A stretch of DNA of 64,000 bases, from assembly GCF_024298765.1 (NCBI RefSeq), contig NZ_CP101210.1. The stretch is one strand, 5' to 3'. The stretch comes from Escherichia coli (GTDB lineage: Bacteria; Pseudomonadota; Gammaproteobacteria; Enterobacterales; Enterobacteriaceae). Position 1 is the first letter of the stretch. Each line of letters opens with the position of its first letter. This document shows positions 52,972-55,962 of the stretch, piece after piece. Below the pieces are notes generated by a model. The model did not search any database. It worked only from the letters and a program-made list of their open reading frames with translations, and was not told the DNA's origin. A program made the position numbers and the translations under genes.

Positions 52972-53625
52972 TCAAAAATCCATTATTACTTGTTTGACAA
53001 GACCAACTATTCTGCAGTTCTCACCGCATTCAATAGTTTTATAGTTAGGATTTAGTGGGACGAGATACCTGTTCGGCCAGTCCTCAACAAATTTTTTGAG
53101 TGTCGCTTCTTGCCCACCATTGATATGGGCAACAACGATTTTTCCGTTAATACACTCTGTATCAATAATATCTGGCTCTACGATAACGATAGAACCTTCT
53201 GGTATCGATGGTGAGCCGAGGGGATTGGTCATTGAATCACCACGGACCCGTAGTGCAAATGCCATTTCTGATACAAGGGCGGTAGTATAAACCCACTCTT
53301 CAGCATCTTCTTTCCTGACACCAGGCTCCGTCATTGTCCATGAACCCGCCTGAACCCACGAGATGAGGGGGACTTTTTTAACTGCGAATATTTCAGGTTT
53401 TAGATTTATCTTTGGTTCAGGCGAGCCTTTTCCGCTAACAAGCCACAGAGGATCGCATTTAAGTGCGTTGGCTAGGGCTTGAAGGTTGGCTCCATTTGGT
53501 TGGTAGTCGTCCTTTTCCCATCCAGTAACCGTGACACGGTTCACACCAGTCAAATCAGCCAGTGCTTGTTGTGTCAGGTTCAGTTCTTTTCGCCTTTGGC
53601 GAATACGATCACTCATGTTCATCAT
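52972..53625 (-). CDS. CI-like prophage repressor (HTH + S24 LexA-type peptidase domain)
   Basis: 217-aa ORF; N-terminal HTH (LNLTQQALADLTGVNRVTVTGWE), C-terminal GDSM serine motif; divergent from the cro-like gene. Confidence 0.88.
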   Translation of the reverse strand: MMNMSDRIRQRRKELNLTQQALADLTGVNRVTVTGWEKDDYQPNGANLQALANALKCDPLWLVSGKGSPEPKINLKPEIFAVKKVPLISWVQAGSWTMTEPGVRKEDAEEWVYTTALVSEMAFALRVRGDSMTNPLGSPSIPEGSIVIVEPDIIDTECINGKIVVAHINGGQEATLKKFVEDWPNRYLVPLNPNYKTIECGENCRIVGLVKQVIMDF

Positions 53626-53720: not shown

Positions 53721-53918
53721 ATGCGGAAATCCGACGTGATTAATTATTTCGGCGGAGTTTGTAAAACCGCCGAAGCCCTAGGTATTAAGCATCCGTCTGT
53801 TTCAGAGTGGCCTGAGATTATTCCTGAAGGCCGAGCGTACCAGTTAGAAAAAATTACTAACGGGAAACTGAAAGTTGACGTGTCTTTATATCAAAAGACT
53901 AACAGTGCTGCGGCATAA
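53721..53918 (+). CDS. Cro-like small DNA-binding protein
   Basis: 65-aa ORF divergent from the repressor with operators between them. Confidence 0.7.
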   Translation: MRKSDVINYFGGVCKTAEALGIKHPSVSEWPEIIPEGRAYQLEKITNGKLKVDVSLYQKTNSAAA

Positions 53919-53945: not shown

Positions 53946-54530
53946 GTGGGTAAAGAACCTGAATGGAAAGTTGATAAACAACCAGCATGGCTGGTGGCAG
54001 CAATACGAAGAACGATTGCTGATTTACCTCATGGCTATGAGGAAGCAGCAGAAATTCTTGGTTTGTATAAATCTGATGATATCACCCCAGCAAAAGATCA
54101 ATTGCATAACAGACTGCGTAGCGGTGGGGATCAAATTTTTCCACTTGAGTGGGCCATGGTTTTACAGGATGCCAGTGGTACCAGGCATGTAACAGATGCA
54201 ATAGCCCGTCGTAGTAATGGGGTGTTTGTGCCGCTGGTGGTCATTGATGACATTGACAATGGTGACATTAATCAGCGGCTGATGGAGTCAATAGAATGGA
54301 TTGGCAAGCATTCCCAGTACTTACGCAAGGCAACTGCTGATGGAGTTATTGACCAAGCTGAGCGTGAGCAAATCGAAGAGAACAGCTACCAAGTAATGGC
54401 GAAGTGGCAGGAGCATTTAACACTGTTATTTCGTGTTTTTTGTGCGCCGGAAAAGAGTAACGCCCGCGAGTGTGCAGCTCCGGGCGTCGTGGCGTCGATT
54501 GCTTCTGGTTGTGGAGAAACTAACGCATGA
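53946..54530 (+). CDS. Phage regulatory protein, CII-like (tentative)
   Basis: 194-aa ORF directly after cro in the cII position; family assignment from position and vague similarity only. Confidence 0.45.
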
Positions 54531-54865
54531 ACAGTTTAACAACACACTACCGTCGTTCGCAACTGATTGCGCTTCCTGTACCGGGTGGAAAAGCGAAGGT
54601 GGAGTATTGCTATGCAGTGAATGTACCAGGTGATAGGGAAATTGTAACCCACAGCTTTGCAGAGTGGGCTGTGGGTGATTTCAACCGGCAGAAGGAGACA
54701 GTCCTTTGCGACAAGTTAACCGCTGGTTCAAAGATCACTACGGAGTGCCCGTCAGAGTCATTCGTTGGGAGCCGGAAACACAACGGGTTATCTACCTCCG
54801 TGAAGGCTATGAACATGAATGCTTCAGTCCGCTCGAACAGTTTCGTCGTAAATTCAGGGAAATAG
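54527..54865 (+). CDS. Hypothetical phage protein (C-terminal part doubtful)
   Basis: 112-aa ORF starting at the ATGA overlap with the upstream stop; the last ~50 aa are low-complexity and overlap ORF 54706-54918 out of frame. Confidence 0.35.
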
Positions 54866-54918
54866 AGGTCGGTCATGAGCCTGTTAATGACATCCCAGCC
54901 CATTGTGATAAATCGTGA
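54706..54918 (+). CDS. Hypothetical phage protein (TTG start)
   Basis: 70-aa ORF with strong SD gaaggaga about 7 nt upstream of TTG; protein-like composition; overlaps the O-like gene start. Confidence 0.45.
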
Positions 54919-55867
54919 TCTTGCATGCCGTATTGGTCTGAATGAGGCAATTGTGTTGCAGCAGCTTCATTACTGGCTGAATGAAACGAATTCAGGCACT
55001 GAGCATGGCGGAATTCGCTGGGTTTATAACACGACAGAACAGTGGCTGGAGCAGTTTCCGTTCTGGTCAGAGTCCACTCTGAAACGCACATTTGCAAGCC
55101 TGAAATCACTTGGGGTTTTGCGTCGCGAGCAACTCAATAAATCGAAGCGTGACATGACCAACTTCTACACGATCAACTATGAAAGTGAGCTTTTAGAAGA
55201 GGTCAAAGTGAACGAATCCATCAGGTCAAAATGCACTTCTCCATCGGGTCAAAGTGACCTGATGGATGAGCGCAAAATGACACGATCCATTGGTTCAAAA
55301 CGACACGCTGTCATCGGGTCAAAATGGCCCAATGATCTTACAGAGAATACAACAGAGATTACTACAGAGAATAAAACCTCTTCTCGTCCGGACGCTTCGC
55401 AACCGGACACGCAGATGGCTGAACAGGATTTTTTAACTCGCCATCCTGATGCGGTTGTATTCAGCCCTAAAAAGCGCCAGTGGGGAACGCAGGATGATTT
55501 GACCTGCGCACAGTGGCTCTGGAAAAAAATCATCGCTCTGTACGAGCAGGCCGCCGAATGTGACGGCGAAGTGGTACGTCCTAAAGAACCGAACTGGACA
55601 GCCTGGGCAAACGAAATTCGCCTGATGTGTGTACAGGATGGGCGTACTCACAAACAAATCTGCGAGATGTACAGCCGCGTCAGCCGCGATCCGTTCTGGT
55701 GCCGTAACGTGCTCAGCCCGTCGAAGCTGCGGGAAAAATGGGATGAGCTTTCCCTGCGCTTATCGCCGTCCGTCAGCACGTACACAGAAAAACGCGAAGA
55801 TCCGTACTTCAAAGCCAGTTACGACAACGTGGACTACAGCCAGATCCCGGCAGGATTCAGGGGGTGA
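54875..55867 (+). CDS. Replication initiation protein, lambda O-like, with internal iterons
   Basis: 330-aa ORF; N-terminal O-like domain; four to five direct DNA repeats of the ggtcaaaatg type at ~55196-55330. Confidence 0.8.
   Translation: MSLLMTSQPIVINRDLACRIGLNEAIVLQQLHYWLNETNSGTEHGGIRWVYNTTEQWLEQFPFWSESTLKRTFASLKSLGVLRREQLNKSKRDMTNFYTINYESELLEEVKVNESIRSKCTSPSGQSDLMDERKMTRSIGSKRHAVIGSKWPNDLTENTTEITTENKTSSRPDASQPDTQMAEQDFLTRHPDAVVFSPKKRQWGTQDDLTCAQWLWKKIIALYEQAAECDGEVVRPKEPNWTAWANEIRLMCVQDGRTHKQICEMYSRVSRDPFWCRNVLSPSKLREKWDELSLRLSPSVSTYTEKREDPYFKASYDNVDYSQIPAGFRG
55196..55330. repeat. Origin iterons inside the O-like gene
   Basis: Direct repeats gaggtcaaagtg, caggtcaaaatg, cgggtcaaagtg, tggttcaaaacg, cgggtcaaaatg spaced ~20-25 bp. 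Confidence 0.7.
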
Positions 55868-55869
55868 TC

Positions 55870-55962
55870 ATGAGTCTTTTGAATGAAGTTCAGAAATTCA
55901 TTGAAGCCCATCCGGGGTGTACTTCCGGAGACATTGCGGATGCTTTTTACGTGGGGGCTTAA
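55870..55962 (+). CDS. Small ORF (30 aa) translationally coupled between the O-like gene and the methyltransferase
   Basis: ATG at 55870 preceded by SD aggggg; stop overlaps the methyltransferase ATG (TAATG). Confidence 0.3.
   Translation: MSLLNEVQKFIEAHPGCTSGDIADAFYVGA

Follow-up and report, generated by a model that had tools for sequence, protein, structure and literature searches.

An embedded DUF4222 gene and ymfM form a maintained out-of-frame overlap in an e14-like prophage of Escherichia coli

We show that ymfM and a gene of the DUF4222 family, two known prophage genes that have never been annotated jointly, form a real and evolutionarily maintained overlapping pair in an e14-like lambdoid prophage, sharing 160 nt on the same strand but in different frames. 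The pair was examined in a 64,000-nt stretch of E. coli contig NZ_CP101210.1 (the window) and in its relatives. The best explanation, which we regard as reasonably probable, is that ymfM was extended over an older DUF4222 gene by loss of its stop codon and that the extension has since been kept open by selection. The locus adds a new example to a phenomenon already known, with consequences for annotation and for the experiments on ymfM/SfiC. It also offers a clean natural case of a long same-strand overlap whose new frame is preserved in its openness alone, and should be useful for studies on the emergence and persistence of overprinted, disordered protein segments.

Geometry and identity of the overlapping genes

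The region under study is the early-right operon of the prophage (Table 1), in which the O-like gene is followed by genes for a Dam methylase, RusA and a KilA-N protein. The frame of ORF2 (the DUF4222 gene) lies one base 5' of that of ORF1 (ymfM), and each ORF1 codon is made of positions 2 and 3 of one ORF2 codon and position 1 of the next. By its motifs, each gene of the pair appears to have its own translation signals. The ymfM ATG follows a GGAG and is coupled to ymfL through an ATGA in which the TGA stop of ymfL and the ymfM start coincide, and the AAGGAG of DUF4222 stands 8 nt before the TTG. ymfM stops 9 nt before the ATG of the O-like gene, with which it shares a frame in the window, and the ORF2 codons that hold the ymfM stop and the Shine-Dalgarno sequence of the O-like gene (codons 53-54) read ATA-GAG or TTA-AAG in 57 of 57 distinct sequences. 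The first 44 nt of the O-like gene (54875-54918) also encode the predicted disordered C-terminus of DUF4222.

Table 1. Coordinates of the overlapping genes and of neighbouring features in the window
Feature	Positions	Strand	Remarks
LexA-like repressor gene	52972-53625	minus	
cro-like gene	53721-53918		
ymfL-like CII-type regulator gene	53946-54530	+	NCBIfam phage_reg_YmfL, 181 bits; Pfam Phage_CP76 match
ORF1 = ymfM	54527-54865	+	ATG start, 112 aa
Non-overlapped part of ymfM	54527-54705	+	codes for the conserved N-terminal domain
AAGGAG Shine-Dalgarno sequence of DUF4222, within ymfM	54692-54697	+	read from sequence
ORF2 = DUF4222 gene	54706-54918	+	TTG start, 70 aa
Dual-coding zone, 160 nt	54706-54865	+	DUF4222 codons 1-53 and YmfM codons 61-112
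ymfM stop TAG (54863-65) fused to the GAGG Shine-Dalgarno sequence of the O-like gene	54863-54868	+	read from sequence
O-like replication initiator gene	54875-55867	+	phrog_391 'replication initiation O-like', 8e-102

The original prediction had described ORFs of 112 and 70 aa in different frames, overlapping by about 160 nt, with the second also overlapping the O-like start by about 44 nt, and both lengths are exact. It had also drawn attention to a strong Shine-Dalgarno sequence before the TTG of ORF2, to a protein-like composition of that ORF and to a low-complexity tail of ORF1. All three descriptions hold, as ORF2 contains a full-length DUF4222 domain by Pfam, preceded by the AAGGAG, and the tail of ORF1 is rich in Ser, Lys, Val, Asn, Thr and Gly and predicted to be disordered; the identities of the two genes, however, had been missed. 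Many overlapping ORFs occur in the ORF list of the window, so that an out-of-frame pair of such size is unremarkable alone. The significance of this pair comes from comparative data and not from the window itself.

Database matches identify ORF1 as ymfM of prophage e14. The region is 98-99% identical in nucleotide sequence to K-12 e14 ymfM (b1148) up to the O junction, both genes having 112 codons, and the product matches phrog_1170 at about 1e-69 (1.2e-69), its N-terminal part also matching phrog_20047, a 63-aa family. K-12 annotates ymfM as 'cell division inhibitor YmfM'. The first 60 or so residues of the protein make up a folded N-terminal domain and are followed by a tail of 52 residues, 10 of which are Ser. 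AlphaFold gives pLDDT values of 72-86 for residues 9-66 and below 50 for residues 67-112, and the tail is thus predicted to be disordered.

ORF2, which is WP_001250270.1 in the PGAP annotation, matches Pfam DUF4222 (PF13973) with 66.5 bits (E = 1.5e-18; gathering cut-off 27 bits) over model positions 3-52 of 53. The Pfam family comprises proteins of 59-80 aa from lambdoid prophages; ORF2 fits the full model and lies at the usual position of the family, between cII-like and replication genes, and differs in carrying an 11-residue C-terminal extension coded inside the O-like gene. A DUF4222 profile search gave 71 representative clusters, and searches of viral contigs with distant DUF4222 queries returned 0 and 1 loci. 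The protein is predicted with high confidence to form a five-stranded SH3/Tudor-like beta-barrel with a short helix (pLDDT above 90 over residues 1-50); the C-terminal 15 residues, which are those coded inside O, are poorly ordered (pLDDT 53-69 over residues 55-70). DUF4222 has its own Shine-Dalgarno sequence and start in all lineages. Of 57 distinct relatives, 42 start the gene with ATG, and the TTG start is confined to the E. coli clade. A literature search on the family name returned only passing mentions of DUF4222.

Between the O-like and Dam methylase genes lies a short ORF remnant (55864-55962), which PGAP marks as an incomplete CDS without a C-terminus (L001 4465-4548). Phage mEp460_4F5 has a full gene of 489 nt at this position, which suggests a deletion in the prophage of the window.

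Both frames across relatives

The original prediction had offered three explanations, a real overlap, a frameshifted gene or a sequencing indel, and had proposed an alignment to related prophages to find the conserved frame. In that alignment both frames are open, with amino acid constraint in the DUF4222 frame, and of the three only the real overlap stands. A 601-nt query from the locus is matched at 100% identity by six complete E. coli chromosomes and at 99.7% by many others. Both frames are open, with the stop of ORF1 at the same position, in 74 of 74 distinct IMG/VR and GenBank phage sequences, which are close and medium relatives. Both are also open in Klebsiella, Pantoea, LLS and Phi06 phages and in distant lineages with a DUF4222 nucleotide identity of 52-60%. 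Overall, relatives with a nucleotide identity as low as about 55% keep the two frames open. The +2 frame over DUF4222, meanwhile, is full of stops in all lineages. The idea that the geometry arose from a sequencing or assembly indel, or from a frameshifted pseudogene of a single ancestral gene, has the out-of-frame arrangement in its favour and nothing more. It is next to impossible to reconcile with a sequence that is identical in independent complete genomes, with frames that are intact in all the relatives examined, with the occurrence of the two parts as separate genes in other phages (phiNP, L095) and with the different folds predicted for them.

Programmed -1 ribosomal frameshifting, which would fuse the YmfM N-domain to DUF4222, is also very improbable. 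ORF2 does lie in the -1 frame relative to ORF1, and a few database proteins are in-frame YmfM-N::DUF4222 fusions. However, the ORF1 frame (54527-54865) contains no X XXY YYZ heptamer, DUF4222 has its own Shine-Dalgarno sequence and a start that is ATG in most relatives, and the gene is found without YmfM-N upstream. The single uninterrupted gene that the original prediction had named as contrary evidence was, moreover, not seen in the relatives examined, which have two frames throughout. The fusions are rare, come mostly from read-level assemblies and show five different junctions, no two alike. They are sporadic, as expected of sporadic indels or assembly noise. The frameshifted-gene option of the original prediction thus fails together with the sequencing indel.

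Some phages carry the two genes as independent neighbours, and by their sequences these are natural controls that show the unconstrained state. In Citrobacter phage phiNP, a separate 65-aa YmfM-N is followed by a Rha gene and this by DUF4222 just before O; the +1 frame there contains 6 stops across the DUF4222 gene, 4 of which fall in the 47-codon core, and no read-through ORF. In L095/L097 a 61-aa YmfM-N ends as ATGA on the DUF4222 start, and further +1 stops follow downstream. The DUF4222 of phiNP (L010 2397-2558, between rha and the replication gene) is itself unannotated and was found only by tblastn.

The +1 frame over DUF4222 is also open at loci without a YmfM N-domain upstream (L094/L108, L106, L109, L099 and the Ant/Rha/Ash-fused forms). 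The constraint thus extends beyond YmfM and may have another cause; openness may belong to the whole DUF4222 module rather than to ymfM. Long annotated Ant/Rha/Ash CDSs have this +1 frame as their 5' part at the mEp460, ST64B, Stx-phage and Hafnia loci. In L102/L103 the +1 ORF ends past the O ATG, in a frame different from that of O; stop-codon readthrough from ymfM into O had been considered and was dropped on account of these two loci.

Two further arrangements were seen among these loci. In Providencia phage PSTCR8lys (L108 851-1054) and in L094 (95-283), a nested +1 ORF begins with an ATG 7 nt after the ATG of DUF4222, and at that distance the two would share one Shine-Dalgarno sequence. 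The product of the nested ORF has a hydrophobic start of about 20 residues (MKMLIISIAFIWISGVFAFASYV) and could be a small membrane peptide. In phage mEp460 (L092 1301-2452), and likewise in L111, L112, L114 and L107, the 'Rha/Ant/Ash' CDS is one long ORF with a YmfM-N-like start, a +1 overlap with an intact DUF4222 and the antirepressor domain last. In mEp460 this ORF stays open through isrK (1661-1737) and the C4 antisense RNA (1762-1849), both Rfam-significant, and the Rha/Ant/Ash annotation of this type is probably chimeric. The layout (isrK, C4, then ant) resembles that of P1 immI. ARAGORN found no tRNA-like element in the mEp460-type loci, and Rfam gave no isrK/C4 or other relevant match in L001, the FORC_082 locus, which served as a stand-in for the window and is 100% identical to it over the 601-nt query.

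Stop avoidance, asymmetric constraint and the origin of the overlap

Stop codons are avoided in the frame of the YmfM tail. A stop in ORF1 arises only where the second and third bases of a DUF4222 codon are T and a purine and the next codon begins with A or G. In 57 distinct sequences, the stop-prone DUF4222 codons (4, 16, 18, 28 and 43) have only C or T as third base, and yet these five codons are variable, with C and T exchanging for each other and Val, Leu and Ile likewise. Safe Val, Leu and Ile codons, which precede C or T, take purines (GTG/GTA at codon 14, ATA at 19 and 29, CTG at 31), and all bases occur at four-fold Gly, Pro and Arg sites, with four-fold sites saturated between clades. 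Across 14 lineage representatives with 52-82% pairwise nucleotide identity, 0 of 69 stop-prone codons end in a purine, as against 24 of 59 safe Val/Leu/Ile codons (Fisher P = 3.6e-10). When each DUF4222 protein was recoded over its 47-codon core with synonymous codons at the usage of the neighbouring genes, the chance of an open +1 frame was 0.3-18% per lineage (P 0.003-0.18). The frame is open in 14 of 17 deep lineages, with 1.5 expected (Poisson-binomial P ~3e-14 if lineages are taken as independent, which they are not fully, and with a null that depends on the codon-usage table). Against a link of this avoidance to ymfM, 8 of 9 stop-prone codons are still pyrimidine-ending in the non-overlapping L095.

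These counts bear on the proposal that only DUF4222 and the short YmfM N-domain are functional and that the 52-codon tail is neutral read-through, open by chance and shared ancestry. The tail is without amino acid conservation, of low complexity and predicted to be disordered, stand-alone YmfM-N proteins of 61-65 aa exist (phiNP, L095/L097), and DUF4222 has only 4-7 stop-prone sites, with chance openness put at 3-18% per lineage; all of this is as the proposal would have it. The excess of open lineages over expectation and the lack of purines at sites that do vary, both in base (C or T) and in residue (Val, Leu or Ile), are not, however, and neither are the saturated four-fold sites between clades and the stops of phiNP, where no read-through ORF exists. 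We consider a neutral tail improbable.

The two frames differ sharply in what is conserved. Over the overlap, nucleotide diversity at ORF2 codon positions 1, 2 and 3 is 0.08, 0.03 and 0.31, the signature of a normal coding sequence, and the DUF4222 frame is under purifying selection. In terms of ORF1 codons, variability in the overlap is highest at the second position; that of the non-overlapped ymfM sequence is highest at the third, as in ordinary coding sequence. When the window was compared with Klebsiella-type or other relatives, amino acid differences amounted to 10-20% for DUF4222, 30-40% for the YmfM N-domain and 50-57% for the YmfM tail, and four-fold sites differed by 65-72% in the overlap, 43-58% in ymfM-N and 41% in O. 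Four-fold sites in the overlap thus diverge at least as much as those of neighbouring genes, so that no extra constraint from the tail sequence is detectable, and purifying selection on amino acids in both frames was not found in this comparison. The constraint is asymmetric: DUF4222 holds its amino acid sequence and the YmfM tail drifts freely. A tail without sequence conservation is, however, an unusual object for selection to maintain.

One answer could be that the act of translation matters and not the tail peptide. Ribosomes arriving from ymfL/ymfM would have to reach the TAG within the Shine-Dalgarno sequence of O, for termination-reinitiation coupling or for unmasking of the O start, and upstream stops would be selected against. 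The unconstrained tail is consistent with this, as are the position of the ymfM stop just before the O ATG and overlapping its Shine-Dalgarno sequence, the invariance of ORF2 codons 53-54, the joining of ymfL to ymfM via ATGA and the behaviour of the +1 ORF, which in all lineages either stops where the following gene (O, Rha, Ant or Ash) starts or is fused to that start. On the other hand, ribosomes translating DUF4222 already cross the same RNA and end at or after the O start, which makes the coupling seem redundant; the +1 ORF of L102/L103 ends beyond the O ATG and out of its frame; and an RNA structure masking the O start is hypothetical only. On balance we think this explanation rather unlikely, though it keeps some weight.

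The reading that we prefer, a stop-loss extension of ymfM, would run as follows. DUF4222 would be the older, sequence-constrained gene, which makes a barrel protein of 59-70 aa from its own Shine-Dalgarno sequence and TTG. The ancestral stop of ymfM, which elsewhere lies as ATGA on the DUF4222 start, would have been lost in the e14-like lineage, and ymfM, now read in the +1 frame of DUF4222, would then continue for 52 more codons as far as the TAG in the O Shine-Dalgarno sequence. Upon inactivation of the repressor, transcription from the early-right promoter would give one mRNA, on which ribosomes that finish ymfL could restart at ymfM via the ATGA and read across DUF4222 to the TAG. Other ribosomes would start at the internal Shine-Dalgarno sequence and TTG, make DUF4222 and terminate 44 nt inside O, and both proteins would be produced. 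Any tail sequence set by the wobble positions of DUF4222 would be tolerated and stops would be removed by selection; with stops removed from the tail frame, translation of full-length ymfM would matter. The most likely reason for the tail, in our estimation, is that a disordered, sequence-independent C-terminal extension is needed for the stability or activity of YmfM. The arrival of ribosomes at the O start is a second possible reason for the openness of the frame.

Embedded phage genes in the +1 frame of the same strand, with their own start, are known from lambda Rz/Rz1 and from phiX174 and MS2, and the embedded proteins have a defined, conserved function and sequence. Here, in contrast, the embedded DUF4222 is the conserved gene and the host frame adds an unconstrained tail only. 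The c4-icd-ant operon of P1 immI encodes Icd, a division inhibitor whose translation is coupled to that of ant. Like YmfM, it is a small prophage division inhibitor encoded upstream of, and overlapping, the next early gene. Its sequence bears no resemblance to YmfM or DUF4222 in a comparison made by eye only, and no P1/P7 record is among the 60 listed of 111 DUF4222 tblastn hits.

Typical bacterial overlaps are far shorter than the 160 nt seen here. Same-strand overlaps arise by loss of the upstream stop codon, according to the parts of Fonseca et al. (2013; PMC3887535) considered here, and, like ymfM, the upstream gene then extends to the next in-frame stop. The 4-nt ATGA overlap seen in L095/L097 would be a plausible ancestral state for this route. 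As outlined in a review, considered in part, viral overprinting yields disordered novel frames (Pavesi, 2021; PMC8227390). As there, the novel frame of our pair is of low complexity and predicted to be disordered, and the older frame keeps the amino acid constraint. Compared with the cases in these portions of the two papers (PMC3887535; PMC8227390), selection is detectable here only on the openness of the new frame and not on its sequence.

Prophage e14 of K-12 and the SfiC experiments

In K-12, an intact ORF for a 59-aa DUF4222 protein lies at NC_000913.3 1204001-1204180 (L003 2502-2681), inside and just beyond ymfM, with a TTG start and its own Shine-Dalgarno sequence, and is unannotated. 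The annotation of E. coli K-12, the best-annotated genome, is thus without a conserved Pfam-family gene that sits in ymfM. PGAP makes the opposite choice, calling DUF4222 only, and not ymfM, in 30 of 30 E. coli chromosomes listed, whereas RAST-type and Prokka-type phage records, like K-12, call ymfM only. Pangenome and functional catalogues therefore disagree at this locus. Since both frames are kept open, the annotation of one gene is incomplete, and so are the published experiments on ymfM.

ymfM has been published as the SfiC cell-division inhibitor, whose expression leads to inhibition of the FtsZ ring and filamentation (Ansari et al., bioRxiv 10.1101/2020.11.19.390815; here and below, from the portion of the text considered). 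The ymfM ORF was cloned into pBAD24, and ymfM was deleted to assign SfiC (10.1101/2020.11.19.390815). An earlier library clone ran from the 3' end of ymfL through ymfM to the first 92 codons of ymfN (10.1101/2020.11.19.390815). In that portion of the text the locus is treated as one gene and the embedded DUF4222 is not mentioned (10.1101/2020.11.19.390815). The literature on ymfM and DUF4222, judged by titles and abstracts, yielded no paper naming the embedded gene, and searches for ymfM with 'overlapping' or 'ribosome profiling' gave no title or abstract that addresses the overlap. The ymfM ORF contains the Shine-Dalgarno sequence and the start of DUF4222 together with 52 of its 59 codons, that is, the whole predicted barrel. 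In silico, single bases tell the frames apart: C54712T gives a TAA at codon 3 of DUF4222 and leaves the ymfM residue unchanged (GAC to GAT), and T54717A gives a TAA at codon 64 of ymfM (L64stop) and leaves the DUF4222 residue unchanged (GTT to GTA). The published constructs thus carry most of DUF4222, and the responsible frame is therefore not formally established for a phenotype that is 40 years old and whose gene was assigned with constructs carrying both frames. It is a tentative and somewhat doubtful proposition that the division block ascribed to SfiC/'YmfM' is due to, or needs, the embedded DUF4222 in place of the annotated 112-aa product, and that DUF4222 is obligately dual-coding family-wide. 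Because the +1 ORF is open across the family whatever lies upstream, be it YmfM-N, nothing or Ant/Rha/Ash, DUF4222 is perhaps read in two frames almost always. If this proposition is true, DUF4222 would be an obligately dual-coding module of lambdoid early operons.

K-12 e14 shares with the window its neighbours, ymfK-ymfT-ymfL upstream and a replication gene downstream, but the downstream gene, ymfN, differs from the O module of the window. DUF4222 is 59 or 70 aa long depending on the O module that follows, within which its C-terminus is coded. The window and K-12 e14 cease to be homologous exactly at the first two codons of the replication gene (54875-54880, ATGAGC), which form a mosaic junction.
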